Shown: positions 708 to 31,106 of the stretch, piece by piece
Layout: every line of letters begins with the position of its first letter
Numbering within the stretch: the stretch's first letter is position 1
NCBI GenBank assembly: GCA_021812145.1
Contig: JAKAOM010000001.1
Coordinates: 21,898 to 85,897, forward strand
Direction: 5' to 3'
DNA length: 64,000 nucleotides
From: Candidatus Micrarchaeota archaeon
GTDB lineage: Archaea > Micrarchaeota > Micrarchaeia > Norongarragalinales > UBA8480
Translations under genes and position numbers: made by a program
Notes under the pieces: generated by a model
Databases searched by the model: none
What the model saw: only the letters and a program-made list of their open reading frames with translations
What the model was told of the DNA's origin: nothing

Positions 708-1160
708 TTGGAGTCAGGATACGCTGAGGATTTTGTAAAGTTTTTGGTTGTTTTTTTCGCTTTATTCGCTTTTATCCATTTACTTGACGTTTCGCTTCTA
801 ACTTCCTTCCTCGCCGGATTGGAGGGATTCCTTCTTTCATCCCTTGGATTCGCGACTGTTGTTTCTAACTCGCTTTTGACTGTTAATTCAATTTCCTTTC
901 TTGTAAGCGTTGACTGTTCCGGATTGGTTTTGATTGTTTTGCTTTTCTCTCTGTTTGTTTCAACCGGCGTTGGCAGCGTGAGGAATTTTGTTTTTTTCTC
1001 TGCTCTACTATTCCTTTTCAACATTGCCAGGCTTCTTTTGACCATTGAAGTGGGTGGTGTTTTCGGCTTTGGAGTTATGGAGGCAACGCATATCTTTTTG
1101 TGGTTTGTTGATTCAGGAGTGGTTTTTGCAATCTGGCTGTGCGTCGGAGGGTTTATTTGA
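708..1160 (+). CDS. small polytopic membrane protein, possibly exosortase/archaeosortase-like (CSG motif)
   Basis: 150 aa, 4-5 TM helices; contains VDCSGL (CxG-S motif resembling the exosortase/archaeosortase catalytic Cys block) and a later conserved Arg (IARLL). Preferred over the antisense KE-rich ORF 704..1045. Confidence 0.3.
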   Translation: MESGYAEDFVKFLVVFFALFAFIHLLDVSLLTSFLAGLEGFLLSSLGFATVVSNSLLTVNSISFLVSVDCSGLVLIVLLFSLFVSTGVGSVRNFVFFSALLFLFNIARLLLTIEVGGVFGFGVMEATHIFLWFVDSGVVFAIWLCVGGFI

Positions 1161-1256
1161 TCTTTTGGCTATTACCACAAACTAAATGCTTTAATTAGAA
1201 TTCTACCCAATTTTTAAATAGAAATAAGTGTTTTTTATGGGAATGTTTTAATTTCT

Positions 1257-1466
1257 TTGAGCGACGCTGACGAGTCATTGTTAAGGCGCATTGCAAGGGA
1301 AAAATTTCAGGGCAAAAAGGGATCTTTAAGCGGAGTGGTAAGCGAGGCTATAAAAAATTTAAATGAAAATAAGAACGTTTCAAAGGAAGCTTTCTTAATT
1401 TTGCTTGACAAGGGAATTAAAGGCGATTATAAGATGTACAAGAAAAGAAGTGAGTTGTATGACTAA
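1257..1466 (+). CDS. antitoxin (VapB-like) of VapBC pair
   Basis: 69-aa charged protein whose 3' end overlaps the start of the downstream PIN-domain gene by 8 nt (ATGACTAA). Confidence 0.5.
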   Translation: MSDADESLLRRIAREKFQGKKGSLSGVVSEAIKNLNENKNVSKEAFLILLDKGIKGDYKMYKKRSELYD

Positions 1467-1881
1467 AATTCTTGTTGACACGAATATTTTGATTTATTCT
1501 GTTTTAGAAAGTGATGAGAAAAAGCACAGGATTGCTAATGATATTGTCAAAGACCTTGTTCGGTCGGAAGAGTTTGTTTTAAGTTCTCAGAATCTGGCTG
1601 AGTTTTGCCGGGTTTTATTGGAAAAAAACAAGCCTCGTGTTGAAAGTTTCGAACTCAGGAATTTGGTGCTTGGTTTTTTGCGTTTTTCTTCTTTTATTTC
1701 TTATTCTGAAATGACCGTTTTGGAAGCATTGTCTAGTTGTGACGAGTACAAAGTTAATTTTTTTGATGCTTTGCTAATAGCTTCTATGAAGGAGAATGGA
1801 ATTGTTAATATAATGACAGAGAATGTTTCTGATTTTTCCAGGGTTCCTTGGCTGAAAGTTATAAACCCTTTTGAAAACTAA
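1459..1881 (+). CDS. vapC: PIN-domain toxin VapC
   Basis: MTKILVDTNILIYS... N-terminal PIN signature (D-T-N acidic quartet start); probable true start at MTKIL within ORF 1405..1881. Confidence 0.65.
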   Translation: MTKILVDTNILIYSVLESDEKKHRIANDIVKDLVRSEEFVLSSQNLAEFCRVLLEKNKPRVESFELRNLVLGFLRFSSFISYSEMTVLEALSSCDEYKVNFFDALLIASMKENGIVNIMTENVSDFSRVPWLKVINPFEN

Positions 1882-1921
1882 TTGGAAATGTTTTTATTAG
1901 CTTTCTTCTTACTTTTTAAGC

Positions 1922-3985
1922 ATGCCTCAGCCTAGCGTAAGGAAAGACTGGTTTTTCAGATTCACTGCCTTTTCGTACAAGAATTTCAAGTCTATGGCTA
2001 AGAACGCTGTTTTAACTCCTGAGCAGAAGGAGCTTTTTGAGTTCATGGATTACCGTTTCACTGCCGAGCAGTTCAGGGCGGGCGAGATTGGGGCGATGTT
2101 CGTTGGCTTGATTTTAATGTTTCTAGTGGCAATGGTTGCCATCATATTATTTCAGGGGGATTTAACTAACCCCCTTCTTTTGATTTCAATTCTTATTTCA
2201 GTTATGTTTCCTTTCGTGTTGTTTCTTTTTTATTCAGCCTATCCTGGAATGCAGGCTAAGAAAGAGCAGACTCTTGCAATCGGTTACGCTCCCAGTATTG
2301 TTAACTATCTTGTTATGAGCATGAGGTTGACTCCTAACCTTGAGAAGGCGGTTGAGTTTGCGGCAGAGCACGGTAAGGGAAAGATTGCCGAGGATTTGAA
2401 GAAGGTTATTTGGAACGTTCAAATTGGGGTTTACAATAGTGTGGAGGAGGGTTTGGACAAACTTGCCTATGACTGGGGAAAGTACAACGAGGATTTCAAG
2501 CAGGCTTTGATGCTTATTAGAGCCAGCGTTATTGAAACTGACACTGCTAAGAGAGAGGCGATGCTTGAGAAGGCGGTCAGCGATGTTTTGGAGGGAAGCA
2601 AGGAGAAGATGGACCTGTACGCCAGGGCTTTGCACCAGCCTACAGTCTACCTTTACTATTTTGGAGTGCTGCTTCCCTTGATGCTTGCGATTATAATTCC
2701 TATAGCTGCGTCTATGGGAGGAGGAGGTTTGATGTCTAACCCACTTGTTATTGCTTTGATCTACACTGTCTTCATTCCTGCTGGCTTGCTTATCTACGGT
2801 TCAAATATTATAGGAACAAGGCCTCCCACTTACATACCTCCGAACATTCCTAAAAACTTTCCAGGGCTTCCTAAAAAGGGCTATGTTAAAATTTCAAAGT
2901 TTAGCGTTCCCTACTTTATTTTGGCGGCAGTGGTTTTCGTGGGCGTGATTTTAGCTGGCTTCACTTTTGACTATCAAATCAGCGTTGCAAGCATAAACCC
3001 TAACATTCAAAATGTAACCGCCGCCATTGCTGCTACTCCCCATGTTCAGGTGTTTAACCTTCCCCCTCAGCAGTTTTTCCTAGGGGTTATTTCAATTCTT
3101 TCCATTTTGGTTGCCATTTCCCTTTCAACATCCATAATTCTTTTCGGTATGTTTTATAACCGGAAAAAGATTCAGGACCAGATTAGAAGCATGGAGTTCG
3201 AGTTCAAGGACGCTATGTATGTGATTGCTTCAAGGCTAGGGGAGAATAGGCCTATCGAGGAGGCGGTCAACAGCAGCATTCAATTTCTTCCCAAGAGTCT
3301 TATTGCGAAAAATGTTTTTCAGAAGATTCTCGACAACATTACCAGCATGGGTTTGACTTTGGATGAGGCTATTTTCAACCCGAATTTTGGGGCTTTGAAG
3401 AGTCTGCCTTCAGATGTTTTGCAGAGTGGTTTGAAGATCATGGTTGACTCTGTAAGTCTTGGGACTAACGTGGCTTCTAAGAGTTTGATTGGGCTTGCAG
3501 TTCAGTTGAGGAACAGCGAGAAGATTGACACTATGTTAAGGCAATTGCTGGAGGATGTGACGAGCATGCTTGGAACTGTAAGCACTTACATAGCTCCAGT
3601 GGTTATCGGAGTGGTGGCTTCTCTTCAGCAGGTGGTTTCTTCAAGTTTTGCCAACAGCTGCTCTTCTTCAACGTTGAATTCTTCAGCCACTCAAACCACA
3701 ACCACTTCTAATTTAGGGCCGCTTAGCTCAATGGGTTCAAGCAATTTTGGCAATTTTCTATGCCCTTCAGGAAAGGCTGCTCCTTCTCTAAGTCCTGCTT
3801 TTTTCATTTTGATTATGGGAGTTTATGTTATTGAAGCCGCGGTTATTCTAACTTACTTCAACTCCCAGATTGAAGATTCAAATAATCCTCTGCATTCCTG
3901 GATGAGCATTGCTAGAGCTCTTCCCATAGCCACGCTAATTTTTGCTGCTGTAGCCTACTTCTCAATAGCTGCGGTGGCTCACTGA
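1922..3985 (+). CDS. FlaJ/TadC-like type IV pilus/archaellum membrane platform protein (two T2SS-F domains)
   Basis: 687 aa; two cytoplasmic helical T2SSF-like domains (…AVEFAAEHGKGKIAEDLKKVIWNVQIGV…; …FEFKDAMYVIASRLGENRPIEEAVNSS…) each followed by TM bundles; Ser/Thr-rich C-terminal region. Confidence 0.6.
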   Translation: MPQPSVRKDWFFRFTAFSYKNFKSMAKNAVLTPEQKELFEFMDYRFTAEQFRAGEIGAMFVGLILMFLVAMVAIILFQGDLTNPLLLISILISVMFPFVLFLFYSAYPGMQAKKEQTLAIGYAPSIVNYLVMSMRLTPNLEKAVEFAAEHGKGKIAEDLKKVIWNVQIGVYNSVEEGLDKLAYDWGKYNEDFKQALMLIRASVIETDTAKREAMLEKAVSDVLEGSKEKMDLYARALHQPTVYLYYFGVLLPLMLAIIIPIAASMGGGGLMSNPLVIALIYTVFIPAGLLIYGSNIIGTRPPTYIPPNIPKNFPGLPKKGYVKISKFSVPYFILAAVVFVGVILAGFTFDYQISVASINPNIQNVTAAIAATPHVQVFNLPPQQFFLGVISILSILVAISLSTSIILFGMFYNRKKIQDQIRSMEFEFKDAMYVIASRLGENRPIEEAVNSSIQFLPKSLIAKNVFQKILDNITSMGLTLDEAIFNPNFGALKSLPSDVLQSGLKIMVDSVSLGTNVASKSLIGLAVQLRNSEKIDTMLRQLLEDVTSMLGTVSTYIAPVVIGVVASLQQVVSSSFANSCSSSTLNSSATQTTTTSNLGPLSSMGSSNFGNFLCPSGKAAPSLSPAFFILIMGVYVIEAAVILTYFNSQIEDSNNPLHSWMSIARALPIATLIFAAVAYFSIAAVAH

Positions 3986-4053
3986 ATTTTTGACTGTTTC
4001 TTCTGCATTTTTTTAAGAGAGGTATTTTTAATTTGTTTGTTTATTTTTTAATT

Positions 4054-4191
4054 ATGCGAGGTAGTTCCTTGATTTTTGAGGTTGTCAAAATAGTTATAGG
4101 TTTGATTGTGGCTATGGCTATTTTATATGTTTTAATGCAGGTTTTGGGGGTGGCTGGAGGTTATTTTAAGTTGTTTGGGTTGCCGGTTTGA
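4054..4191 (+). CDS. small membrane protein (45 aa), not in ORF track
   Basis: ATG…TGA, MRGSSLIFEVVKIVIGLIVAMAILYVLMQVLGVAGGYFKLFGLPV; single TM; between platform gene and first pilin. Confidence 0.25.
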   Translation: MRGSSLIFEVVKIVIGLIVAMAILYVLMQVLGVAGGYFKLFGLPV

Positions 4192-4267
4192 TTTTGTTAT
4201 TTTTTTAATTTTGGTTATAAGAAAGGTTTAAAAAATCTTTTGTCGTAAGGTTAAATTGGTGATTTTT

Positions 4268-4810
4268 ATGCAGAGGGGTCAGGCTTTTGAAACTATCATG
4301 ATGGTTATCGCGGTTATAGTTGCTCTTGCAATTCTTGGGTTTTTGACTGGAATTTTAGGCAATCTTAGCAGTATGTTCAACCCTTCTGACCCTGGCAAGA
4401 CCATGACTAGCGCGTTACAGGGAATTGCTGGAAGTTATAGTTCTGGAACCGCCCCTCAAGTTTTGAGTTTCAATGTTGCTGGCCAGAGTTTCGACACCGC
4501 TGGTTTGACTCAAAGCACGTCGCTTTCATCTTATAACGTTTACTTTGTTTGTTCTAGCACTGTTCCAAAAGGGGCTATTTCAATCAGTTCCTTAGGTAGT
4601 GGTTCAACCGCTTTGCAAAAAATGACGATAAATCAAAAAGTAAGTCTTGAAATGGTTGCTTGTGGTAACCCTTCACTTAATGGTAAAGGACCTTACTACG
4701 TAATTGCGTTGGGAGGCAATGGTGATACTGCAGGTACTTCTAACGCTTGTTATAATGCGTTTACTAACAACCCTACTTTTGGTACTGCGCCAACAAGTAA
4801 CTGTCAGTGA
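4268..4810 (+). CDS. prepilin-like protein with class III (type IV pilin-like) signal peptide
   Basis: MQRGQAFETIMMVIAVIVALAILGF: K/R-G-Q followed by acidic residue and hydrophobic helix; Ser/Thr/Gly-rich body with Cys pairs. Confidence 0.55.
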   Translation: MQRGQAFETIMMVIAVIVALAILGFLTGILGNLSSMFNPSDPGKTMTSALQGIAGSYSSGTAPQVLSFNVAGQSFDTAGLTQSTSLSSYNVYFVCSSTVPKGAISISSLGSGSTALQKMTINQKVSLEMVACGNPSLNGKGPYYVIALGGNGDTAGTSNACYNAFTNNPTFGTAPTSNCQ

Positions 4811-4816
4811 TATTTT

Positions 4817-5086
4817 GTGAAAGGAAGCGAGTGGACTCCAATATACCTGATGATTGTTTTAATCATAGCAGCGATTCTTTTGGTTGAAGTGGTGAAGCCT
4901 GTTATGAAGCAGGCCGCTTCAAGCGCTTCCTCCAACCTGCAGCAGTCAAGCAATCTTATTGGAGGGTTTTCGCTTTTTTCCGTTGATTTTAAAAAACTGA
5001 AGCGTTTTTTAAGCGGTAAGCTTTCTGTTTTTCATTTAAGGATTTTGTCTGTTTGGGCGAAAGCAATTAAACCTTTTTCAATTTAA
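4817..5086 (+). CDS. small membrane protein in pilin cluster (possible minor pilin)
   Basis: MKGSEWTPIYLMIVLIIAAILL N-terminal KG-S-E then hydrophobic helix. Confidence 0.3.
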   Translation: MKGSEWTPIYLMIVLIIAAILLVEVVKPVMKQAASSASSNLQQSSNLIGGFSLFSVDFKKLKRFLSGKLSVFHLRILSVWAKAIKPFSI

Positions 5087-5090
5087 ATGG

Positions 5091-5798
5091 TTGATTGGTG
5101 TTTTTGTTGCTTTGAGGAAATCTCAGGAGAGCGCTCCTATTGAGCTTGTAATCGCGGTTATTATCATGGTAATGAGCATCACGCTCGCGTTTACTGTTTG
5201 GAACAGCATTCAGACCAACCAATGTCTGAATCAGATTCAGAGCGAAATGATGACTGTTGAGAATGCGGTTGTTGACGTTTCTCTTGGATCGCCTCCCACC
5301 CAGAGGGTTTTGTCTTTGAGTTTTCCTGTCTGCGGGAGCTATAATATTCAGGCTATACGTTTTGCTTACTACGGTAGTCCTAGCTATTGTGGAGGGTGCC
5401 CTTCATCAAGTTCGGGTTGCTGGAAGATAGAGCCTTTAAGCTTTAATCCAAGCGCTTCCATGCCTTTCACTACTGTTAGCCAGGCTTCTGTTTGCATCAA
5501 CGTTCCCGCATCTATTGATTTTGTTTCTGAATCAAGTTCTTCTTGTAATTATAATTCTAATATTGATAGTAATTCAACTAATGGCTGCCCTTCATCTTCC
5601 ACCTTTTCTCAATTGAGCAGACTTACTTTCAGTAGTCCTTTGGGTTGCGAAGAACCTTCATCTGGAACTAACGGGTTGAATTTTTATTACGCCACCATTA
5701 GCAAGGGAGGTCAAAGTCAGTACAATTTGATTTTGTCGAAGGGTTACGCCACTGCCGGTGGCAGCGTTGAAATCAGCATGTGCCTTGAGGGAAAGTAG
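5091..5798 (+). CDS. prepilin-like protein, Cys-rich
   Basis: LRKSQESAPIELVIAVIIMVMSITLAF N-terminus (basic-S-Q…E then hydrophobic helix); 12+ Cys in secreted body. Confidence 0.5.
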   Translation: MIGVFVALRKSQESAPIELVIAVIIMVMSITLAFTVWNSIQTNQCLNQIQSEMMTVENAVVDVSLGSPPTQRVLSLSFPVCGSYNIQAIRFAYYGSPSYCGGCPSSSSGCWKIEPLSFNPSASMPFTTVSQASVCINVPASIDFVSESSSSCNYNSNIDSNSTNGCPSSSTFSQLSRLTFSSPLGCEEPSSGTNGLNFYYATISKGGQSQYNLILSKGYATAGGSVEISMCLEGK

Positions 5799-5850
5799 CT
5801 CTTGTTTTTTTCAAATAGTTTTTTTAATCATTGCGTTTAATTTTATTGGC

Positions 5851-6501
5851 GTGAGGAAATCTCAGATTGAATTGTGGATGCTTAGCAAGTTCGCCATTCT
5901 TTTTTTTATTCTAGCGCTTGCGATTTTTCTTTTCACTGTGAGCCAGAGCGAAAAGTCGGGTTTATGCTCTGTCGAGGCGGGTTCTCAAGCACAGATCATT
6001 TCAAATTCTATAAGCAACGTTTTGAATAATCCTATTGAGGACCAGCAGTTGGTGGTGAAACTTCCCTCAGCCATAACCCTTGGCAGTGGTCTGAGCGCTT
6101 ACCTAGTTAACATAACTTACACTAACCAGTCGGCGGGCCCTTCTCTGATTGCAGTTCAAGCCTTTTCAAATACCGGCAATTGTGTTTCTAACCCTCAGAC
6201 TGTTTCGTTTTCTTCTAACGTTAATGTTAATTTTATCGACGTTAATGGAGATAATTTACCTCTTTCGCCTGTTAAAAATACTAATATTAATCAAATGGTT
6301 TTGTCTGCAAACCCGTCTTTTGTTTCTCTTCCAAACCAGTTTTTCTTGCTTGTGATTAAATGCACTTCTAAGTCAAAACCTACCTTGCCGCCTTATCTTT
6401 TTGTAATTACTTGTGTTCAAACTAAGCTTTCTCTTTGCTCTGGGTATGGTATTTATAATACTAATAATCTTTTAATAAATAAGGCTTGCGGTTTTAGTTG
6501 A
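5851..6501 (+). CDS. prepilin-like protein (probable GTG or downstream ATG start)
   Basis: same nucleotide motif gaggaaatctcag (RKSQ) as the preceding pilin start, then IELWMLSKFAILFFILALAIFLF hydrophobic helix; ORF track start 5758 overlaps the upstream gene. Confidence 0.45.
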   Translation: MRKSQIELWMLSKFAILFFILALAIFLFTVSQSEKSGLCSVEAGSQAQIISNSISNVLNNPIEDQQLVVKLPSAITLGSGLSAYLVNITYTNQSAGPSLIAVQAFSNTGNCVSNPQTVSFSSNVNVNFIDVNGDNLPLSPVKNTNINQMVLSANPSFVSLPNQFFLLVIKCTSKSKPTLPPYLFVITCVQTKLSLCSGYGIYNTNNLLINKACGFS

Positions 6502-7187
6502 AAGAGGTTGATTTGTTTTTTTTGAAAGGTTTTATTGGCCCCTTGGGTGACGACATCCCTGGTGTTTTTCCTATTGTTTTGGGTATTGTTTTGTTTGTTT
6601 CAAGCCTGCTTTACGCTAACGGTCAAGTGCAGAACGCTAATAATCAGATGAATTTGAGGAGTGCGGGTTTGAGTTTGGCTTATGTTGTCAGTCAAAACCC
6701 TTACCTTACTGCCGGAAGTTTTAATTTGGATTGCGCGAACGCGTGGCAGCCTTTAGGCAAAAACTTAAATTTGAAGTTTATCATTGTTGTTAAATCCTAT
6801 TGTCAGTATGGATTGAATTTTTCGCTTAACCCTTTCATCTCCTGCCAAGACCCTACATTGTTGGCTTCAAATTCTCCTTCTTCCCCTGCTAACTATATAG
6901 GCGGTTCTTTAAATCATAATTATCTTAACTATTATACTTGCTGGTCAAATGATACTGCAACTTCAAGTATCCTGGATAACGTAACTAGCTATACTTATTC
7001 AAATCTAATTAACAGTTTGCCTTCGAACGCGGTTATTCTAAGTTTTCCAATAGCTGTTAACTGCCCTACCACTTCTTCCCTAACAACAAACTACGCCTCC
7101 TCCAATTCGAATAATATGTGCGATTATTCTTACGGGGGGTCAATGACTTACGGTGTTGGAACTTTGAATATAATGGTGTGGCAGTAG
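6498..7187 (+). CDS. pilus-cluster secreted/membrane protein
   Basis: N-terminal hydrophobic segment (FPIVLGIVLFVSSLL), Asn/Ser/Thr-rich body with Cys; 4-nt overlap with upstream gene. Confidence 0.35.
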   Translation: MKEVDLFFLKGFIGPLGDDIPGVFPIVLGIVLFVSSLLYANGQVQNANNQMNLRSAGLSLAYVVSQNPYLTAGSFNLDCANAWQPLGKNLNLKFIIVVKSYCQYGLNFSLNPFISCQDPTLLASNSPSSPANYIGGSLNHNYLNYYTCWSNDTATSSILDNVTSYTYSNLINSLPSNAVILSFPIAVNCPTTSSLTTNYASSNSNNMCDYSYGGSMTYGVGTLNIMVWQ

Positions 7188-7189
7188 AA

Positions 7190-7942
7190 ATGAAAGGACA
7201 GGCTGTTTTGTTTGACGCTATAATGTTTATGCTGTTATCCAGCGTTTCGGTTGCGATTATATTCTCTTTTCTTTCAACTTACGGCCAACAGGAGACCGCT
7301 GTTTTGCAGAGCGCGAATATCCTGAATTACATCCAGAGCATTGTAAAAGTTTCTTATTTTATTGACGCTTCCACCCTGTATAATGTTACTGGCCATTATG
7401 GAAGTTCTGGTGTTTCTTTAAATTGCAGTTATCTTCAGAATTTTTACGGTGTTAGCGTGGCTCAGCTTTTGAAGAAGGATTTGAGTGACGGGCAGTTTAA
7501 TAACATGTTTGGCAATTCCTCTCCTGCCCCGGGTAAGGAAGCGCTTAGGTGTTTGATGTTTCAGGTTATGCAGCCTTTTGTTTCCGCAGGGTATGATTAT
7601 CATATGGATATCATAAATTATTCGCTGGTTCAGTCTGGCTCGCTCAACAATATTTACCCCTCCCTAAACCCGAGTAATGGAAATACTATCGATTACCCCT
7701 TTTTTACTACTTTTAGCGTGGGTTACGCTCCTGATTTGACTCAGTTTGATTGTGGGCAGGCCACTGATTTTAATTGTTATAACGTTACCCAGACTTTAAA
7801 CTCAACCAGCATTATGACTGTAGGCACTCCTTTTTTTGTCACTTCATCTAATGGCAATACTAGTGAGTTTGTTATAAATCTTTGTGTTTGGAAGCAGCAG
7901 TATCGTTCAAGCAGTACTTGTGATTGGGTTCCAATGCATTGA
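7190..7942 (+). CDS. prepilin-like protein with class III signal peptide
   Basis: MKGQAVLFDAIMFMLLSSVSVAIIF: textbook KGQ-A…D + hydrophobic helix; start 2 nt after upstream stop. Confidence 0.55.
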   Translation: MKGQAVLFDAIMFMLLSSVSVAIIFSFLSTYGQQETAVLQSANILNYIQSIVKVSYFIDASTLYNVTGHYGSSGVSLNCSYLQNFYGVSVAQLLKKDLSDGQFNNMFGNSSPAPGKEALRCLMFQVMQPFVSAGYDYHMDIINYSLVQSGSLNNIYPSLNPSNGNTIDYPFFTTFSVGYAPDLTQFDCGQATDFNCYNVTQTLNSTSIMTVGTPFFVTSSNGNTSEFVINLCVWKQQYRSSSTCDWVPMH

Positions 7943-7946
7943 TTTT

Positions 7947-9521
7947 TTATTTTTTCTTTTTCACTGTTACTTCTTCCCCGCAGTGCGGGCAGGTGAATAT
8001 GAAGTGGTCTCCCTCTATCTTGATTTGAGGCGAGCAGTTTGTGCACATGGCCCCTCCGCAGTATGGGCAGAATACTATCCTGGTGTTTTTTGCGTGGCAG
8101 TTGGGGCAACCCATTCCGCTTTCGCTTTCTATTTTTACGAACTCGCTGCTTTTCTGCTCTTTTTGCGCTTCTGTTGGCGTTGTGCTTTCTGTTATTCCGC
8201 TTAATTGAGCGAAAAGCCCGGTTGGTTGCTGCTCTTGTTTTTTAGTTTCCAGTCCCCCCTCTCCTCCTAACACGTCATTTATGCTTAAAGTTTGTACTGG
8301 CTTTTCCTCTTTTACTTCTTTGTCCCTTCTTCTCTCTCGTTTTTCTTCTTTTTTCTCCTCTGGTTTTGGTTTTTCTTCTTTTTTCTCCTCTTTTTTGGCC
8401 GGTTCTGACGGAACGTTAGGTGTTATCTTTTGTACGTTTCCTTCTGTTTTAGTTTTTCTCAGTTCCTCGTAAACATCCTGAACAAGGGATTGAAATTCTT
8501 CTTTTCCAGCCATGTCGCTGCTCGCTATAACCTTAACCTTCTCTTTTTGTTCAGGAGTAAGCAGGTAGCGCCTGTGCTTTGGTATTTCCTTGCCTTGGGC
8601 TTCTTCCACCGTTTCTTTGACAACGTCTTTTATTATCCCCTCTATTTCAGTTTCTTCAATAGTTTTTGGTTTTTCTTGTTTTTTCTGGAATTTGAAACCG
8701 CCCTCTTGTTTTTGTTCTTGTGGTTTTTCAGTTTTTTGGAATTTGAATTCGCTTTCTGGTTTCTCCTCTTTTTTGGCCGGAATTTCTTTTTGTGTTGTTG
8801 TTTGCGGTTTTGGCTTTTCTATCCCCTTGACCTGTTTTGCTTCTTCTGTTTTTGCAGGGGCGGGTTGTGTTTTTTGTATCGCGGCTGGTTTTGGTTTTTC
8901 CGGTTGTTTTACCGGTTGAGATTGTTCCTGCTTTAACGGTACTTCTATGCTTTGTTTCAGCGGGACTTGGATGTTTTGAAAAGATTCTCCTAAAATCTCT
9001 CTTTTTACCCCTTCTATCCCTTCTTGTTGAATTTCATTTGTTTTAAGAGGTATGTTTATTTCTATATCCCTTCCAGTTATCTCTTCTTTAAGCTCTTGAA
9101 GGGTCGGAGTTTTCTGAATTTTTGTCGGCGTTACTGTTTTTTTCTTTTCTTCCTGTTTTTGCGGTTTTGGTTTTTCTTCTTTTATTGGAACTGCTATTGT
9201 CATGTATTTTGGCGTGTAGGAGTAGTAGTATTTGAAAACTATAAAGAAAAGAGTCGCGTATATTATTGTGAATATTTCAATGTAGGAGTCTATGTTTAGG
9301 AATCTGTCGACTCCGAAGAAGAAGATGTTTGTTATGTATGAAAGGAACACTATAATCAAGCCCAGCATTCCTGAAACAACGAGTTTTTTCTGCTGGTCGT
9401 ACGTTCTAACTTCGGAATAGGACACTCTGAGAACGAAGTAGCCTATTGTAATTGAGCCTACTAGAAAGAACAGGTAGTAAAATGCTATTCCTATATAGGC
9501 TGTAACGTCCATTTTTTTCAA
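7947..9521 (-). CDS. membrane protein with 4 N-terminal TM helices, long Lys/Glu/Pro-rich repeat linker and C-terminal zinc-ribbon
   Basis: 524 aa; N-terminal TMs; EKPKP/FKFQK tandem repeats; C-terminus CPNCHAKNTRIVFCPYCGG…CTNC…FTCPHCGEE (several CxxC pairs). Antisense F/L-rich ORFs rejected. Confidence 0.5.
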   Translation of the reverse strand: MKKMDVTAYIGIAFYYLFFLVGSITIGYFVLRVSYSEVRTYDQQKKLVVSGMLGLIIVFLSYITNIFFFGVDRFLNIDSYIEIFTIIYATLFFIVFKYYYSYTPKYMTIAVPIKEEKPKPQKQEEKKKTVTPTKIQKTPTLQELKEEITGRDIEINIPLKTNEIQQEGIEGVKREILGESFQNIQVPLKQSIEVPLKQEQSQPVKQPEKPKPAAIQKTQPAPAKTEEAKQVKGIEKPKPQTTTQKEIPAKKEEKPESEFKFQKTEKPQEQKQEGGFKFQKKQEKPKTIEETEIEGIIKDVVKETVEEAQGKEIPKHRRYLLTPEQKEKVKVIASSDMAGKEEFQSLVQDVYEELRKTKTEGNVQKITPNVPSEPAKKEEKKEEKPKPEEKKEEKRERRRDKEVKEEKPVQTLSINDVLGGEGGLETKKQEQQPTGLFAQLSGITESTTPTEAQKEQKSSEFVKIESESGMGCPNCHAKNTRIVFCPYCGGAMCTNCSPQIKIEGDHFIFTCPHCGEEVTVKKKK

Positions 9522-9595
9522 ATCTCTTTTGTTTGGTTTTGAGTTTATTGTTTGTTCAGGTAGGTTTTTAATTTTTCTCCTCCTTTAAGTTTTGT

Positions 9596-9826
9596 ATGGA
9601 TTTTCTTGTTCAGTTGTGGTTTACGTTCATTTTGTCTTTAGCCGTTAGCATTATTTTCTTTCCTTTTGTTTTTGTTTTCTCTTTTGTCTATGATATTGCC
9701 AGCAGGAACTCGAAAATTCCTAAAATCGTTTGGATGTTTTTGTGCGTTTTCGTGGCTGTTTTGATTGGAGTGGTTATTCTAAACGCTTATCTTAATTACA
9801 CTCTTCCCGCCGCGCTTACAGGTTGA
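9596..9826 (+). CDS. small 2-TM membrane protein
   Basis: 76-aa ORF, two hydrophobic helices, divergent from 7947..9521. Confidence 0.3.
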   Translation: MDFLVQLWFTFILSLAVSIIFFPFVFVFSFVYDIASRNSKIPKIVWMFLCVFVAVLIGVVILNAYLNYTLPAALTG

Positions 9827-9905
9827 TTTTTTTCCGCTTGTTTTTTTTTGCTTGTTTTACCTTCGGATAAGGTTTAAATATACTTACACTCCTATTCTTA
9901 TTTTG

Positions 9906-12900
9906 ATGAACTTGTTTAAGCTGCTTGTTTCGCTGGCGTTATTGTTTTCATTGGTTCAAGCTCAATGCCAGGTTAACGTGATGAATTCAAGCCAAGCTGA
10001 ACAGTTTTTAATGCTTCCAATGCTTATGCAGGCTAATCAAATCTCCTCTTCTTCAACTCCCGCGGCTTCTTCCCAGCAGGTTGTTAACGTTTTTTCTCAG
10101 AATTCAGGAGTTGTTAATTCAAGCACTGTAGCCGCTGTTTTGGGGATGACCCCGCAGCAGGTAGCCCAGCAGGCTGGCGTGCCAGTTGGTGCGGATATAA
10201 CTCTAACCCAAGCCGAGCAAATAGCCTCTACTGCTGGAAAAAGCAACTTGATTTCTCAGATTTTAGGTTTGGTTTCCAGCCAAACGCCTGTTTCACCTGC
10301 CGATGGTTTGAGCGTCACTCTGCCCAATGGTTTGAAAATGCCTTTGTCAGTTCTTAATAATTTGACTTCTATTAACTCTTCTAATTGCATGGTTAACGGA
10401 ATGTATATTAACGGTCAGGTGGAGTATCAGGGTTTGCTTACAAGCGGGGATGTTTATTACGGTTTGACTTCAAGCCCTTCAACTTCAACCGAGCAGCACC
10501 TTTCATCTTCCTCATTCACTGCAGGGGTTAATCTAGGCACTGGCGGCAGCAACATGGTTCTTCCCTACACTTATACGCGCTGGTTGATATCTTCAGGGTG
10601 GATTAATGGAGCGGATACTTTGATTAATTCTGTTGCCAGTATGGGAATGTATTCAACACTTGGGACTGCCACTCCTAAAGTAACTGCTTCAGATCTGGAG
10701 TCTTTGGCTAAGGCGAATAGCGTGCTTGAAACTACTGCAAAGTCTGCAGCGTCTGATTTGGCTTCAACATTAACTTCAATTGAAAACCCAGCTGATAAAC
10801 AAGCTTTGGATTCAATAATATATAAACTTTCAAGTGGTGCAACGCCTCTTTCTAGTGATGAACTTGCAACTCTTAATAAACTTGCAGCAAGTGATCCTGT
10901 TTTGCAGACTTCTTTATCAGATTATAATACTAAATTAAGCAGTGCGCAGCAGGTTGCCCAGCAGATGAGTGGTTCGATAAGCAAGCCCAGCACACAAGAT
11001 ATTGCCGATTACACTGCTTTAACTAAAGCCACTCTTGCAAAGGCAACATCAAGTTTTATTCTTGGCATGACTTGGCTTGGACCTGCCAGGTTCGCTTTTC
11101 AGATTAATAGCGCTTTGCTTTTTTCAAATCCTTCTAATAATGGCGATTTTTATGTTTTGCTTAAGGTTAACAGGAATACTTTAACCTCTTTGATGACGGT
11201 CAGCGATATTCTAGGTTTAGGCTATTTTGACGACACCTTATCTAAACTTTTTGGTATTGGCGTGCCCAACGCTGCCTTGACTGCTGGCGAAATGTATATC
11301 ATAAACCAGCCTTCCACCACTTCTCAAACTTCTGGATCCACCACTACTTTTAATAATAATGGTTTGGCGTGGCAGGTTCAGACTAACTGGCCTGGATCAT
11401 CCACTGTTACCAATTTTCAAAAGCTTAACCCGAGCAGTAATTTGACCACTATAGAGCTTACCACAAATTCTATCCCGCCAGGAGCGGTTATAAGCAGGCT
11501 GGATGTTTTGAAATATCAGGCTTTGGCGGTTTTGTTTGCAGTTCCATTTGTTTCTACATTGACTTTGCCTGGCGCTTTAAAGGCTGGTTTGGGCAGTACT
11601 TTCGCTGGTTTGTTGCCTGACGTGGTTATGAAAGTTATACCTTTTATTGGAATTAGCGATATTGTTTACGCTATTAACAATAATGTCTACAATAGCGTTG
11701 AACCGTGCAGTCAATCTACAATGACTGACTGGATTGTTGCTTATGGCTCTGCAACCGCTTTTTCCGACGTTTGGGCGGCAGTTCCTATTTTAAGCAGTTG
11801 GAGCAGTGTTTTTGGCAGCACTCTTAAGGGTTTTTCAACGGCTTTTACTGGATCTGGAATTTTTGGTTCCCTTGGAAGTAGCTATTTGACTTTCAGCAAG
11901 TTTCAAGGGCCTCAGTTAATGCAGATGATTGTTGGAGGTTTGGCTGCGAAGTATGCCAGCACTTGCATTGATTCCGAGTATTACGTTGCAGCGTTTCAAC
12001 CCACTCCAACTCCGAACTCGGCCGCTTTAGCTTCTGCCAACAGCGTTAACAATCTTGCCAATAATTCTGTTGTTAAGAACCTGGGTTTGGGGGGTTTGCT
12101 TCAAGGGGCGGGTCAGAATATTCAGAACGCGGCTCTAGCCAGCGAAAACACGCTGATAGTTTCCTTGACTAATCAGAATGGTTTGGTAATGCCTACGCAG
12201 CTTTACTACATCCACATGACTAACGCTGACATTCAGTGGTGGGGCAAGTTCAGCAATAAATGTTTCCATACATGCTTGTCTGATAGTGTCAGCAATATTA
12301 CTGCTTGTATCAACGGTCAGACGGGAGTGCAGGTTAAAACTCCTGCCGGGACTATCCAACTTGCAGGTTCTACAAGGGCCAAAGGGCAGCAGGAGATTGA
12401 TAAGTTTGGGTTGGATTTGATTCCCAACGCGTATATCACGACAGAGCTGACTTGCAGCGGTGTTTTCGCAACTGTTTCAAATCAGGATTTGATTTTAAGC
12501 GGCGGTTGCCCTGGAGGGGCTTGCATTCTTTCAAGCGTTAGTCAAATTGTTGGCTATCAGGTTGGGGATTTAGGCCCGGTTATGGGCAAGGTTGATACTA
12601 TTTTAACTGATAACGGAAGCATTTCATTTCCCAGCGGCTCCCCTGTCTTCAACAACGCTTCTAACGGAAGCTCAGTTTCTTTTACCACCCTTCAGATTAA
12701 CGGGAATGGAGAGGTTGTAGGAGATAACGCTAATTTAGGAACGCTTGAATCAATTAAGTTTGATAATGGAGCAATGTGGTACGATTCCAGCAACGGAGAG
12801 TTGATTATCTTCATTTACCAGCTTGCTTCAGCTTTGGCTTCTTCTTTCTCAGCCTTGAACGCTCAGGTCAGCAATTGCACTGTGGGGAATCAAACAACCC

Positions 12901-13601
12901 CCGCGATTGACTTGAGTGTTGGCGCCAATGCTGCAAACGCTCCTGCAGCTCAGCAGTTCAACACTGCCCTGAACCAGATTCAGCAGGGTTGCGGTGTGGA
13001 GCAGTGGCAAACAAATTCAACTATCTACACTCTTCACAACGTTAACGGAACTCCTACACTGACTGTAACTGACGCGCTTACAAAGACTAGCACAGACTAT
13101 CCTCTTTCAAGTCTGCAGCAGGATGGGAATAAGGTGGTTGCCACCACTGCTGATGGAAAGCAGTTTTCTTTCACTTTTGCTAACGGTCCTGCAGGACCTC
13201 AGGTTACTGTGAACACCCCTACTGGCGGCACCTCTTCTGATATTCTGACAAAGGCTACTGGTTTGGGCGGCATTCTTGCCTACGATCCTGCGACAGGCAC
13301 GTGGGAGGTTTTGAACGGGCAGGGCATTCCTATGTCTACTGGTTTCGCTGCTGGAAACACTATAACCGGAGGTGCGGGAGGCTCTGCGGTCAGCACTCCT
13401 TCCGGCGATTTACTTGGAGTAACTCCTGGCGGTTCAGCGTCCACCTTCAATGTTTTAGCAGCTCTTCCCAGCTTTGATGGGGTTTTGGTTTTTGTTTTCG
13501 CTGGAATCGCTTTCGCTTCAGGGGTTTTGATTTTCACTTTCTACTCTTCCAAACGCTCCACTTCTAAAAGTTCAGCTAAGAGGCGTCGAAGAAAGGTTTA
13601 A
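9906..13601 (+). CDS. giant secreted Ser/Thr-rich surface protein with C-terminal TM anchor and polybasic tail
   Basis: ~1230 aa from MNLFKLLVSLALLFSLVQAQC signal peptide; low-complexity S/T/N/G-rich body; C-terminus VLVFVFAGIAFASGVLIFTFYSSKRSTSKSSAKRRRRKV (TM + Arg-rich tail, sorting-signal-like). Confidence 0.6.
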   Translation: MNLFKLLVSLALLFSLVQAQCQVNVMNSSQAEQFLMLPMLMQANQISSSSTPAASSQQVVNVFSQNSGVVNSSTVAAVLGMTPQQVAQQAGVPVGADITLTQAEQIASTAGKSNLISQILGLVSSQTPVSPADGLSVTLPNGLKMPLSVLNNLTSINSSNCMVNGMYINGQVEYQGLLTSGDVYYGLTSSPSTSTEQHLSSSSFTAGVNLGTGGSNMVLPYTYTRWLISSGWINGADTLINSVASMGMYSTLGTATPKVTASDLESLAKANSVLETTAKSAASDLASTLTSIENPADKQALDSIIYKLSSGATPLSSDELATLNKLAASDPVLQTSLSDYNTKLSSAQQVAQQMSGSISKPSTQDIADYTALTKATLAKATSSFILGMTWLGPARFAFQINSALLFSNPSNNGDFYVLLKVNRNTLTSLMTVSDILGLGYFDDTLSKLFGIGVPNAALTAGEMYIINQPSTTSQTSGSTTTFNNNGLAWQVQTNWPGSSTVTNFQKLNPSSNLTTIELTTNSIPPGAVISRLDVLKYQALAVLFAVPFVSTLTLPGALKAGLGSTFAGLLPDVVMKVIPFIGISDIVYAINNNVYNSVEPCSQSTMTDWIVAYGSATAFSDVWAAVPILSSWSSVFGSTLKGFSTAFTGSGIFGSLGSSYLTFSKFQGPQLMQMIVGGLAAKYASTCIDSEYYVAAFQPTPTPNSAALASANSVNNLANNSVVKNLGLGGLLQGAGQNIQNAALASENTLIVSLTNQNGLVMPTQLYYIHMTNADIQWWGKFSNKCFHTCLSDSVSNITACINGQTGVQVKTPAGTIQLAGSTRAKGQQEIDKFGLDLIPNAYITTELTCSGVFATVSNQDLILSGGCPGGACILSSVSQIVGYQVGDLGPVMGKVDTILTDNGSISFPSGSPVFNNASNGSSVSFTTLQINGNGEVVGDNANLGTLESIKFDNGAMWYDSSNGELIIFIYQLASALASSFSALNAQVSNCTVGNQTTPAIDLSVGANAANAPAAQQFNTALNQIQQGCGVEQWQTNSTIYTLHNVNGTPTLTVTDALTKTSTDYPLSSLQQDGNKVVATTADGKQFSFTFANGPAGPQVTVNTPTGGTSSDILTKATGLGGILAYDPATGTWEVLNGQGIPMSTGFAAGNTITGGAGGSAVSTPSGDLLGVTPGGSASTFNVLAALPSFDGVLVFVFAGIAFASGVLIFTFYSSKRSTSKSSAKRRRRKV

Positions 13602-13629
13602 ATTCATTCATAATCTTAATTTTTAATTT

Positions 13630-14280
13630 ATGGACGGGTTTATGTCAAGGCTTCTTGTTTTCGGTTTTTTCGTGGTTATGGCCGGCGCTTTGGCTTCATC
13701 ACCTTCTGTTCAGCAGCAATGCCCTTCAAATCAATGGTTTTCGACTCTTTCTAACCCTCCTTCATGCCAGCCTTTAACTACAATCATTGTTTCTGATAAT
13801 CTTCCAGCTCCTGTAAACACTCAGCTTTCCACTCCTCCATCAAGCGAGGTTTCCAACGGCTATTCTTCAAATACGGCTATCGGCGGTTCTTCCACTCAGT
13901 ATGATAGTATAATACAGGACTGCGCTTCCCAGTTTAACGTGGACCCTAACCTTGTGAAGGCGGTTGTAAGGGTGGAGAGCGATTTCAACCCGAACGCGGT
14001 AAGCTCTGTTGGGGCTGAGGGTTTGATGCAGCTCATGCCTTCGACGTTTAACTCTCTTACTTCCGGCGATATTTTCGACCCTCGAACCAACGTGTGCGCT
14101 GGAACTGAATATTTGGCTCAGCAGCTTTCCACTTTCGGCGGCAACGTGGAGCTGGCTTTGGCAGCCTACAATGCTGGCCCTGGAGCGGTTATTAAATACA
14201 ACAATCAAATTCCAAATTACCCTGAAACGGTGAATTATGTAAGCAGCGTTGATTCCTACTACCACTCCTACAGCGCTTGA
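13630..14280 (+). CDS. secreted lytic transglycosylase (SLT domain, GH23-like)
   Basis: signal peptide, then LVKAVVRVESDFNPNAVSSVGAEGLMQLMPSTF…AYNAGPGAV: canonical SLT catalytic Glu-Ser block, GLMQ and AYNAG motifs. Confidence 0.7.
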   Translation: MDGFMSRLLVFGFFVVMAGALASSPSVQQQCPSNQWFSTLSNPPSCQPLTTIIVSDNLPAPVNTQLSTPPSSEVSNGYSSNTAIGGSSTQYDSIIQDCASQFNVDPNLVKAVVRVESDFNPNAVSSVGAEGLMQLMPSTFNSLTSGDIFDPRTNVCAGTEYLAQQLSTFGGNVELALAAYNAGPGAVIKYNNQIPNYPETVNYVSSVDSYYHSYSA

Positions 14281-14299
14281 ATTTCTTTTTTTTTTTAAG

Positions 14300-14373
14300 A
14301 GCCTCAGAAGGGAATTGAACCCTTGACCTCCTGTTTACAAGACAGGCGCTCTACCGACTGAGCTACTGAGGCT
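14300..14373 (-). tRNA. tRNA-Thr (anticodon TGT)
   Basis: reverse complement folds as cloverleaf: acceptor GCCTCAG/CTGAGGC, D-arm GCTC…GAGC, anticodon stem CCTGT/ACAGG with loop CTTGTAA, T-loop TTCAATT. Confidence 0.8.
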
Positions 14374-14561
14374 TTACCCTTGCTTGTTTTTTTGTTTTTA
14401 AAATGTTTTAAATCTTTGTCTTTTTTTGTTTCGCGTTTCTTTTTAAATAATTTTAATAGCTTGATTTTTGTAACTATTTTACAGTAATAAGGCAACGCTT
14501 TTATACTCGCCTTGTAATGTTTTTTAACAATTGGGTTGAATTTTAAAAAGGTGGTTTTAGA

Positions 14562-14774
14562 GTGTTAAGTGACTGCAATTATGACAAGGTTAAGCTTATT
14601 CATCATTTAAGCAAGATAGTTGGTTTTATCGACAGGCACGCTGTCGGCGACGCGGAGCGGGGAGGGCATCCTTTATGCGCTGAAGAGTACAAAGAGTTGA
14701 GGGAGGATTTGGAGAAGCATATTGGCAAGCTTAGCGCTGCTGTCAAGGGCTTGTCAAAAGAGGATAAATTTTAA
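14562..14774 (+). CDS. hypothetical small protein
   Basis: 70-aa ORF, no recognisable motif. Confidence 0.2.
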   Translation: MLSDCNYDKVKLIHHLSKIVGFIDRHAVGDAERGGHPLCAEEYKELREDLEKHIGKLSAAVKGLSKEDKF

Positions 14775-14838
14775 CCTTCTATTTTTTTCAAGCGCTTGTT
14801 GCGTTCTGTTGTTTGAAAAAGGGTTGATTCAGTATTCT

Positions 14839-15204
14839 CTAAAATAGTTTTAGTTCCTTGAATTTTTTGAAGTGTTTTGTGTTTAGAGTGTACAGCTTGG
14901 CGTTATTGTTTATTGTTATAGCTGCTATCATGCTGTCCATTCTGAGTGTCCCTTCTATTTCTGATTTTACTTCAAGTTTTGCCGATAGTTCTGCGTCTTG
15001 TTTTGTGTAGTTAAGAATAGGTATCTGGCTTATTTTCGCAGTTTGTTTGGCGTATTTTATTGCTCCGTAAATAAATTCATGCAAGTTTAGCGTTGTGGTG
15101 CAGAATTGCTCGTTGCTGGCTATGATTTTATTTAACGCTTGCTCTCCAATCTCAGAGTTTTTATCGAATATTTCTATGAGAACGTCCGTGTCTAAAACTA
15201 TCAT
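14839..15204 (-). CDS. vapC: PIN-domain toxin VapC
   Basis: MIVLDTDVLIEIF… PIN N-terminus; 4-nt overlap with upstream small gene. Confidence 0.6.
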   Translation of the reverse strand: MIVLDTDVLIEIFDKNSEIGEQALNKIIASNEQFCTTTLNLHEFIYGAIKYAKQTAKISQIPILNYTKQDAELSAKLEVKSEIEGTLRMDSMIAAITINNNAKLYTLNTKHFKKFKELKLF

Positions 15205-15410
15205 CTTTTCTCGCTTCTTTTTAGGTATATTTCTGAGAGCATTTTATCCTTGTTTTTGAATTCGACGCTGCCTCTTATTTCTTTTAATATGTCTGCTGGA
15301 TTTTTGGGTTTTATCAGTCTTTCAAAGAGGTTGCTGAAGCTTTCGTTTTTTCTTTTTACGTCCAGTAGGTCTAGGTAGACGTTTGTTTTTATTGTTATTG
15401 TTTTTGACAT
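15201..15410 (-). CDS. antitoxin (VapB-like)
   Basis: 69-aa gene overlapping the start of the PIN gene (ATGA overlap). Confidence 0.45.
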   Translation of the reverse strand: MSKTITIKTNVYLDLLDVKRKNESFSNLFERLIKPKNPADILKEIRGSVEFKNKDKMLSEIYLKRSEKR

Positions 15411-18157: not shown

Positions 18158-18259
18158 GCAGGGGTGGCTGAGACTGGTCAAAAGCGCAGGTTGATTTCTG
18201 TGCGACACTTAAGATCCTGTCTCTTAGCGAGTTCGAGGGTTCAAATCCCTCCCCCTGCA
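18158..18259 (+). tRNA. tRNA-Leu second copy (intron-containing), 1 mismatch to 16657..16758
   Basis: 102/102 alignment with a single D-loop difference (GAGCCTGG vs GAGACTGG). Confidence 0.65.
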
Positions 18260-30256: not shown

Positions 30257-30272
30257 TTTGAGGTAGTTTTAT

Positions 30273-31103: not shown

Positions 31104-31106
31104 AAA

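Follow-up and report, generated by a model that had tools for sequence, protein, structure and literature searches.

A conserved pilus-like and surface-protein gene block in Micrarchaeota accompanied by a lineage-specific, apparently active lytic transglycosylase of bacterial type

The window analysed here is a stretch of 64,000 nucleotides from a Candidatus Micrarchaeota contig (JAKAOM010000001.1, positions 21,898 to 85,897), and it contains a block of genes for a predicted pilus system and surface proteins followed by a gene for a lytic transglycosylase with an SLT domain. The block consists of a pilus assembly platform gene, six prepilin-like genes, a gene for a KE-rich membrane protein with zinc ribbons (the KE/Zn protein), a gene for a 76-aa protein and a gene for a giant surface protein, and it was conserved across Micrarchaeota while the SLT gene was confined to a narrow sub-clade. 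The explanation that we favour, at a probability of roughly 0.6, is a conserved pilus and surface module beside an independent, lineage-specific accessory SLT enzyme that would act on bacterial murein. The genes listed in an initial annotation of this DNA were all recovered at their coordinates. Its proposal that they form one apparatus is taken up below.

A predicted secreted lytic transglycosylase of bacterial type

The open reading frame (ORF) at 13630-14280 on the plus strand encodes a family-1 (GH23) lytic transglycosylase of 216 aa, with a signal peptide, a linker up to residue 87 and an SLT domain at residues 88-216. The match to PF01464 had an E-value of 3.2e-32 and 111 bits (gathering score 21.3), and Glu116 fell on the catalytic Glu478 of Escherichia coli Slt70 in a phmmer alignment. 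An alignment of 45 sequences, made up of five archaeal orthologues and 40 bacterial homologues, was used to follow the ES, GLMQ and AYNAG motifs, and in it E116, S117, G131, M133, Q134, A179, Y180, A182 and G183 were invariant while L132 and N181 were kept in at least 90% of the sequences. The AlphaFold2 model of residues 88-216 had a predicted local distance difference test score (pLDDT) above 95. A Foldseek search with this model returned Slt, Slt70, MltC, MltD, MltE and MltF with a probability of 1.00 and a root-mean-square deviation (rmsd) of 1.6-3.7 Å, the best matches being Slt, Slt70, MltC and MltE at 1.6-2 Å. Residues 1-22 resemble a Sec signal peptide (MSRLLVFGFFVVMAGALA, followed by SS), and the linker at residues 23-87 is rich in S, P and T, was modelled with low confidence and contains a pair of cysteines in the motif QCPSNQWF...SC, which was confined to the archaeal orthologues. 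The protein showed no anchoring or docking domain.

Sequence and model together point to a real, secreted and catalytically intact family-1 lytic transglycosylase of bacterial type that is apparently active. The initial annotation had called a secreted SLT-domain lytic transglycosylase and had named beforehand a failure of hidden Markov model (HMM) significance, or the lack of the catalytic Glu fold, as grounds to abandon the call. A highly significant domain match and the fold with its glutamate were both found, and the call stands, Sec-like N-terminus included.

The same annotation had suggested a VirB1-like role, in which the enzyme opens the wall of its own producer for the filament. The protein scored 15 bits (E = 0.011) against the NCBIfam model of VirB1, where the cut-off is 212, and 24.5 against that of IagB, where it is 208. 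In cultivated Micrarchaeota the S-layer consists of protein (bioRxiv 10.1101/2021.04.28.441871), and an S-layer gene is present in the window at 43473-45968. A VirB1-like role is therefore very unlikely, since the cell would have an S-layer without murein, the VirB1 score is far below threshold and the SLT gene is not co-conserved with the pilus machinery.

Lytic transglycosylases build a 1,6-anhydro ring on N-acetylmuramic acid (MurNAc). Pseudomurein contains beta-1,3-linked N-acetyltalosaminuronic acid and offers neither the C6-OH of MurNAc nor the beta-1,4 bond required by this mechanism, which makes the pseudomurein-containing partner suggested in the initial annotation chemically unlikely as a target. 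A wider proposal is that the enzyme acts on non-murein glycans in general (chitin or chito-oligosaccharides, glycans of the cell itself or of a host archaeon, or pseudomurein) and has nothing to do with bacteria. GH23 includes chitin-active enzymes, MltE and MltD have been crystallised with chito-oligosaccharides according to the titles of their PDB entries, the window is rich in glycosyltransferases and the known hosts of micrarchaea are wall-less archaea (PMC6336744; bioRxiv 10.1101/2021.04.28.441871). All of the peptidoglycan-type family-1 motifs are intact, however, and the protein is most closely related to murein enzymes from Bacillaceae and their phages. These points, together with the chemistry of pseudomurein, leave a non-murein substrate improbable.

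Origin and distribution of the SLT gene

Full-length orthologues of the SLT protein were found in four other database clusters (P0002-P0005, 61-67% identity; P0001 is the window's own protein). The next matches were 47-58% identical over the domain only and were overwhelmingly bacterial where they were named or could be placed in a genomic context, with the named relatives coming from Bacillaceae, Armatimonadota, Anaerolineales and Ralstonia. The SLT domains of SPbeta-like Bacillus phage tape-measure/CwlP proteins were 53% identical to that of the window. Judged by these comparisons the affinity of the SLT domain is bacterial or phage, and the two sources were not separable, both lying at about 53-58% identity. 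No compositional sign of a recent transfer was seen in the gene, its GC content of 0.478 and its GC content at third codon positions (GC3) being within the range of the host. The contexts of the intermediate matches P0007, P0010, P0013 and P0014 were bacterial or uninformative and yielded no archaeal cluster. One of these homologues, P0007 (325 aa; positions 4107-5084 of locus L021), carries two tandem SLT domains.

Loci of relatives (designated L and a number) were retrieved through matches to the platform, to the KE/Zn protein or to giant-family proteins, and were searched for the genes of the block with tblastn and HMMs. An SLT gene located 3' of the giant gene and before the tRNA-Thr(UGU) gene occurred only in the window, in the lineage of L001, L005 and L027, and in L028. 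The tRNA gene (14299-14372, minus strand) forms the boundary of the SLT insertion, and the order giant, SLT, tRNA was also found in L001, L027 and L028. The giant proteins of the SLT-bearing relatives were 54-59% identical to that of the window and the SLT proteins 61-67% identical, and the gap between the two genes was 16-59 nt in all three SLT-bearing lineages. When the five archaeal SLT orthologues were run against metagenomes, the one locus returned was from the L001 lineage. In 13 more distant loci anchored on the KE/Zn gene, and in L025, no SLT gene was found within 10 kb by tblastn or HMM. Five of these 14 SLT-free loci (L009, L011, L017, L019 and L025) contained the giant gene, and no conserved substitute for the SLT gene was found 3' of it in the distant clusters; the position was followed by a gene for a Big_2-like lipoprotein in L009, by a 244-aa ORF and then tRNA-Pro in L011, and by acetyltransferase genes in L025. 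Co-conservation of the genes in relatives, the lack of which the initial annotation had named as refuting its reading, was thus found for the stretch from the platform to the giant gene across Micrarchaeota but not for the SLT gene, which was limited to the window's own sub-clade, comprising the lineage of L001, L005 and L027 as well as L028.

The simplest history for this pattern is that the ancestor of the sub-clade gained the SLT gene once, at a site next to a tRNA gene and from a bacterial or phage source, and that the gene was then retained under constraint. The syntenic region extends past the SLT gene, as a gene for a 70-aa protein, a GCD14-type methyltransferase gene and a second tRNA-Thr gene kept their places in the same SLT-bearing lineages. 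The adjacency of the giant and SLT genes is not specific evidence of coupling between them, because these flanking genes are equally syntenic in the same lineages.

The distribution also bears on the proposal of the initial annotation that the region encodes one contact-dependent attachment or wall-breaching apparatus. In such an integrated system the pilus would bring a bacterium close, the giant protein would dock, and a co-expressed SLT enzyme, delivered by the giant protein or by the pilus, would open the murein locally for membrane contact. The fixed order of the giant and SLT genes with short gaps in all three lineages would agree with this, as would the Sec-type signals on both proteins, the fusion of SLT domains into giant extracellular proteins in other DPANN archaea (PMC8204110) and the location of even distant members of the giant family near type IV pilus-type machinery. 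The SLT gene is missing from the conserved cluster in all of the more distant Micrarchaeota sampled, however, so that the apparatus would have to work without it; the flanking synteny is just as well conserved as the giant-SLT pair; the SLT gene has a TATA-like box of its own and its product has no anchoring or docking domain; and the KE/Zn gene lies on the other strand. An apparatus working as one unit was therefore not supported and is unlikely, and the same holds for delivery of the enzyme by the giant protein or the pilus. More doubtful again is the bolder proposal that a micrarchaeal sub-lineage turned its pilus and giant-adhesin module towards bacteria by way of a co-expressed SLT enzyme of phage or bacterial origin at the contact site of the giant protein. 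If true, the module would be a device with which an archaeon breaches bacterial walls on contact, and the counterpart, divided between separate genes, of the giant SLT proteins in Woese- and Pacearchaeota.

Gene order and transcription units

The platform gene (1922-3985, plus strand) is followed by the six prepilin-like genes (4256-7942, plus strand), which are tightly packed or overlapping in the ORF map. The KE/Zn gene lies on the minus strand (7947-9521), convergent with the sixth prepilin-like gene and divergent from the next unit, in which the 76-aa gene (9596-9826), the giant ORF (9852-13601) and the SLT ORF (13630-14280) are all on the plus strand. The same order of platform, prepilin-like genes 1 to 6, KE/Zn gene on the opposite strand, 76-aa gene and giant gene was found in L005/L027, where the platform is 86% identical to that of the window, and in L007/L011, where it is 51% identical. 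For the parts that each locus covers, L008, L009, L017, L019 and L025 had this order as well, with the giant gene inverted in L017 and L019. The giant gene was syntenic with the pilin block in L005, L009, L011, L017, L019 and L027.

The strands divide the region into at least three transcription units, namely the platform with the prepilin-like genes, the KE/Zn gene, and the 76-aa gene with the giant gene and possibly the SLT gene, because the KE/Zn gene is on the minus strand, convergent with the one neighbour and divergent from the other. The single left-to-right unit of the initial annotation was not borne out; the KE-repeat membrane protein with its zinc ribbon was present as described, on the minus strand rather than within a left-to-right series, and the 76-aa, giant and SLT genes each have their own TATA-like box. 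These boxes are located about 26-30 nt 5' of the ATG and read TTTTTAATTT for the 76-aa gene (about 26 nt upstream), TTTAAATA for the giant gene, and TTTAAATT for the SLT gene in the window or TTTTAAAATA in its relative L001. They were read by eye as archaeal TATA-like boxes, and AT-rich spacers make such boxes weak evidence. In view of the box of the SLT gene, its co-transcription with the giant gene is not to be assumed. A run of eleven T residues is located 3' of the SLT gene.

Platform, prepilin-like proteins and ATPase

The pilus assembly platform (1922-3985, plus strand) is a polytopic protein of 687 aa with at least eight hydrophobic segments and belongs to the T2SSF/PilC/TadC family. 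The window protein itself gave no match to PF00482 even at E<=1, whereas 21 of the 23 full-length orthologues, which were 45-86% identical to it, matched this model with a best E-value of 4.5e-10. Its predicted membership in the T2SSF family comes through unambiguous orthology and not through its own Pfam match, and the FlaJ/TadC-type platform of the initial annotation is upheld on that basis. A profile of the 23 orthologues retrieved no PDB chain at E<0.1, so that neither PilC nor GspF was recovered by sequence. Nearly all of the platform homologues were labelled Candidatus Micrarchaeota, Micrarchaeia or Norongarragalinales. A near-identical copy, P0385, carries the NCBI label 'Candidatus Marsarchaeota archaeon' (MCL5011560.1), which is probably an issue in the classification of a metagenome-assembled genome.

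A T2SSE-family ATPase gene is located directly upstream of the platform gene in the relatives L006 and L007. The ATPase of the window, encoded at 22312-26100 on the minus strand, is inverted and about 18 kb distant from the platform gene, and is presumed to be the motor of the platform. It is a protein of 1262 aa with an intein and a LAGLIDADG homing endonuclease; the intein was also present in the orthologue of L006 and absent from that of L007 (757 aa).

The tandem prepilin-like genes with class III signal peptides described in the initial annotation were confirmed as prepilin-like, and their count of 'five to six' was corrected to six. The likely starts, all of them at a permissible ATG, GTG or TTG codon, are 4268, 4817, 5112, 5851, 6522 and 7190. 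Following the FlaFind-type rules for prepilin N-termini, all six proteins have a prepeptide of 2-4 residues ending in [KR][GAS], after which comes a hydrophobic helix (the end of the prepeptide is marked by a slash in what follows).

The first prepilin-like gene (4268-4810, plus strand) encodes 180 aa beginning with MQRG/QAFE, a motif kept in L005, L007/L011 and L008, and the protein had a sub-threshold match to Flp_Fap (E = 0.017). The second (4817-5086, plus strand; 89 aa) has KG/SEWTPIY, which is RRG/DEWAP in L011, and a sub-threshold match to ComGC. The third (5112-5798, plus strand) starts on TTG and encodes 228 aa with ten cysteines, the N-terminus RKS/QESAPIE and a sub-threshold match to ComGE, while the fourth (5851-6501, plus strand; 216 aa) starts on GTG and has RKS/QIELWML; both of these motifs were kept in L005, L008, L009 and L011. 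The fifth protein (6522-7187, plus strand; 221 aa) carries KG/FIGPLGDDIP, which, as [KR]GF[IV]GP[IL]GDDIP, was near-invariant in six lineages. The sixth (7190-7942, plus strand; 250 aa) begins with MKG/QAVLFD, has seven N-X-S/T sites and kept its motif in L005, L008, L009, L011, L017 and L019. The six signatures (RG/QAFE, KG/SEW, KS/Q..APIE, KS/QIELW, KG/FIGPLGDDIP and KG/QA..FD) were each kept where the platform is only about 50% identical. As these are orthologues from such distant genomes, conservation of the motifs is far beyond chance. A putative type IV pilus-like system is the only reasonable reading of the platform and the six class III-type proteins, because class III-like signal peptides occur here in a T2SSF/T2SSE context.

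The giant surface protein and its C-terminus

The giant ORF runs from a TTG at 9852 and would give 1249 aa, as in the initial annotation; the likely start is the ATG at 9906, from which the protein (9906-13601, plus strand) has 1231 aa, the same length as the database protein P0241. The other features noted previously were confirmed, as the Micrarchaeota-specific protein has a Sec-type signal-peptide-like N-terminus, a Ser and Thr content of 22%, conserved cysteines and a C-terminal transmembrane (TM) segment followed by RRRRK. It also has N-glycosylation sites and an S-layer-like composition. The family comprises 143 representative clusters, with full-length members of about 1200-1770 aa. Pfam searches of 28 family members returned no domain, SLT included, and a family profile found no sequence-level relative in the PDB. 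The protein is most plausibly an anchored adhesin or cell-contact protein, a role suggested by its size, export signals and context.

The association of the giant family with type IV pilus machinery recurs in L026 with a different type of machinery. In this locus a split T2SSF pair and a T2SSE gene (8171-10538) are found at a distance of 3 kb from the gene for a distant 1531-aa homologue of the C-terminal region of the giant protein (801-5396).

The C-terminus of the giant protein (encoded at about 13470-13601) consists of [L/A]PSF[P/D/T]E, a TM segment and a K/R tail in the window, L001, L009 and L011, with a looser VPSVP form in L017. This architecture is that of archaeosortase/exosortase sorting signals, and no match was obtained between the tails and the known CTERM sorting models. 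A gene upstream of the platform gene, at 708-1160 on the plus strand, encodes a protein of 150 aa that has several TM segments and the motifs CSG, NxxR and H and is weakly similar to archaeosortases. It matched TIGR04124 at E = 9e-4, below the curated cut-off, and its orthologue in L005 matched ArtE at 1.4e-4, ArtD at 2.2e-4 and the exo_archaeo signature at 0.01, all of them below their curated cut-offs. This protein could be a mini-archaeosortase and the giant tail a novel sorting signal, 'PSF-CTERM', which we regard as a lead and not a finding.

The giant protein was also considered as the S-layer protein of the cell and was rejected in this role, as the family contains no PF05123-, PF05124- or TIGR01564-type domain and the window has a separate PF05124 gene. 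The S-layer family of Micrarchaeota carries PF05123/PF05124-type domains (bioRxiv 10.1101/2021.04.28.441871), and the S-layer family protein of the window (43473-45968, plus strand; 831 aa) matched PF05124.

The KE/Zn protein and the 76-aa gene

The KE/Zn gene (7947-9521, minus strand) encodes 524 aa with an N-terminal TM bundle, a low-complexity K/E/P linker and a C-terminal double zinc ribbon, and the protein contains a conserved segment, RRYLL..VIASS..LVQDVY. The gene adjoins pilin genes, the giant gene or both in L001, L005, L008, L009, L011, L017, L019, L025 and L027, and is located away from the block in L012, L014, L015, L016 and L020. In L012 and L020 its homologue precedes an S-layer-like gene (12761-15211 and 10316-12787, respectively) by 1-2 kb. 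This suggests that the KE/Zn protein is linked to envelope proteins in general, and it was treated as an envelope-associated factor rather than a dedicated pilus part, since it is found elsewhere in five genomes and beside an S-layer-like gene in two. The 76-aa gene (9596-9826, plus strand), which was not listed in the initial annotation, encodes a protein with two TM segments and is the first gene of the giant unit, with orthologues in L001, L005, L009, L011, L017 and L025.

The neighbours of the KE/Zn gene in L012 and L020 would also fit a general envelope-biogenesis locus, in which the giant and KE/Zn proteins are S-layer-associated structural or anchoring proteins and the SLT gene is an unrelated neighbour. 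The apparent pilins would then form a short pseudopilus that aids export or insertion in the manner of type II secretion, and six conserved paralogues do resemble one major and several minor pseudopilins; the composition and N-glycosylation sites of the giant protein would fit as well. None of the 28 members of the giant family has an S-layer Pfam domain, however, a dedicated S-layer gene lies elsewhere in the window, and we know of no demonstrated type II secretion system (T2SS)-like secretion in archaea. Such a locus, and a pseudopilus serving it, therefore seem decidedly improbable.

Proposed mechanism and significance

The favoured explanation, a conserved pilus and surface module with an accessory SLT enzyme acquired independently, would work as follows. 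A class III signal peptidase, for which no gene was found in the window, would remove the 2-4 residue prepeptides, and the T2SSF platform and the T2SSE ATPase would assemble the six prepilin-like proteins into a pilus with one or two major subunits, the rest being minor or tip subunits. The surface unit would supply the small two-TM protein and the Sec-exported, probably glycosylated giant protein of 1231 aa, anchored by its C-terminal LPSF-TM-basic signal and possibly processed by the archaeosortase-like enzyme. The ancestor of the narrow sub-clade would have gained the SLT gene, of bacterial or phage origin, by insertion between the giant gene and tRNA-Thr, and the gene would since have been ameliorated and kept under constraint. 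Exported as a soluble enzyme, the SLT protein would cut the backbone of MurNAc and N-acetylglucosamine (GlcNAc) in bacterial peptidoglycan, which might serve to breach or loosen the walls of bacteria that are touched, or to harvest wall fragments.

Several observations weigh against this explanation. None of the pilin models in Pfam and NCBIfam, such as Pilin_N, Class_IIIsignal and Arch_flagellin, was above threshold in the six window proteins or in 13 orthologues, and a scan of the window's ORFs of 120 aa or more returned no prepilin peptidase of the PibD/FlaK type (Peptidase_A24). The giant protein had no recognisable domain in the Pfam and PDB searches, and its AlphaFold2 model (1200 aa, from a two-sequence alignment) had a mean pLDDT of 32.8 and was unusable. 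The substrate of the SLT enzyme is a prediction from sequence, and GH23 enzymes can also act on chitin-like glycans. The SLT gene has stayed right behind the giant gene, at gaps of 16-59 nt, although identity between the proteins has fallen to about 55-65%, so that read-through co-transcription and coupling with the giant protein may occur, and the fused SLT-giant proteins of Woese- and Pacearchaeota would speak for coupling rather than accident (PMC8204110).

Where the hosts of non-acidophilic Micrarchaeota are concerned, a retained and apparently active secreted murein-cleaving enzyme offers a concrete marker, cheap to test, for dealings of one sub-clade with bacteria, be it interaction, predation or scavenging. 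The phylum-wide module of six pilins, KE/Zn protein, 76-aa protein and giant protein with its possible 'PSF' signal is a sensible first target for work on the attachment of these episymbionts.

Other genes of the window

The window is that of a DPANN micrarchaeon and also encodes a CDP-archaeol synthase, an S-layer family protein, FtsZ, SMC and two intron-containing tRNAs of 102 nt. The latter (16657-16758 and 18158-18259, plus strand) were Rfam tRNA matches missed by ARAGORN and are presumably archaeal tRNAs with introns. PIN-domain toxin genes were found on both sides of the module, at 1405-1881 (plus strand) and at 14839-15204 (minus strand) with 15201-15410 (minus strand), the second of these toxins having a small upstream PRK13696-like putative antitoxin.

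A low-GC island at about 30000-38200 (25% against about 40%) contains genes for GT1, GT2 and GT4 glycosyltransferases, S-adenosylmethionine (SAM) methyltransferases and a 783-aa protein, and looks like a variable surface-glycan island. Two genes of the GT9 family, which is of the heptosyltransferase type and typically belongs to the lipopolysaccharide (LPS) core of bacteria, were present in this archaeon at 18339-19481 (plus strand) and 40570-41703 (minus strand). A 244-aa protein encoded at 21544-22278 (plus strand) has a chagasin-family (I42) cysteine-peptidase inhibitor domain.

Comparison with known systems

The initial annotation held that no equivalent organisation had been characterised in archaea, which was overstated. 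SLT domains in DPANN archaea were noted in 2013-2015, and an analysis in 2021 described giant extracellular proteins specific to Woese- and Pacearchaeota, with SLT domains that are 'normally absent in Archaea' and were read as tools against bacterial walls (PMC8204110; PMC10936187). The micrarchaeon 'Ca. Mancarchaeum' Mia14 has two type IV pilus systems next to large surface-glycoprotein genes (PMC6336744). A literature search of incomplete coverage found no report of SLT in Micrarchaeota or of the block of six pilins, KE/Zn protein and giant protein.

The block resembles archaeal type IV and adhesion pili (Haloferax PilB-C, Sulfolobus Aap/Ups and those of Mia14) in its T2SSF platform, T2SSE ATPase and nearby large surface protein, and in a tandem series of small proteins, each with a hydrophobic N-terminal helix behind a very short prepeptide that ends in [KR][GAS]. 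It differs from these systems in having six distinct pilin paralogues that are conserved phylum-wide and match no curated pilin model, an unusually long platform (687 aa) that is marginally recognised by PF00482, and a displaced ATPase with an intein. The KE/Zn protein, the 76-aa protein and a giant family with no known domain are further additions to the block.

The giant SLT proteins of Woese- and Pacearchaeota (fam00969; PMC8204110) share with the window a bacterial-type PF01464 domain in a small-genome DPANN archaeon and a large extracellular protein, and their proposed role is likewise the binding or degradation of bacterial cell walls. The SLT protein of the window, in contrast, is a separate protein of 216 aa, and the giant protein has neither an SLT domain nor homology beyond its family of about 143 clusters. 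The lineage differs as well, as it belongs to Micrarchaeota, whose cultivated members have wall-less archaeal hosts, and the gene is limited to a narrow sub-clade within them.

The SLT enzymes of Firmicutes and their phages (CwlQ/YjbJ-like proteins of Bacillus subtilis and the CwlP/tape-measure proteins of SPbeta) are 52-58% identical over the domain and have the same motifs, and the small secreted enzymes of Firmicutes also consist of about 200 aa with a signal peptide and one SLT domain. Unlike them, the archaeal orthologues have the specific N-terminal QCPSNQWF...SC and the S/P/T linker, and a housekeeping role in wall remodelling is excluded for the window enzyme because the host has no murein of its own. 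Machine-associated lytic transglycosylases (VirB1 of type IV secretion systems, IagB/IpgF of type III secretion systems, FlgJ and PilT-associated enzymes) offer the likeness of an SLT-family gene beside filament or secretion genes. These enzymes open the murein of their own producer, whereas the producer here has an S-layer and no murein, the machine occurs in relatives without an SLT gene beside it, and the scores against VirB1 and IagB are far below threshold.

The region does not form a new category of system, and current views stand, since there are earlier reports both of SLT domains in DPANN archaea and of type IV pili in Micrarchaeota. What is new here is that a further DPANN lineage has an SLT protein, small and free-standing, and that its gene adjoins a conserved block of which no earlier description was found.

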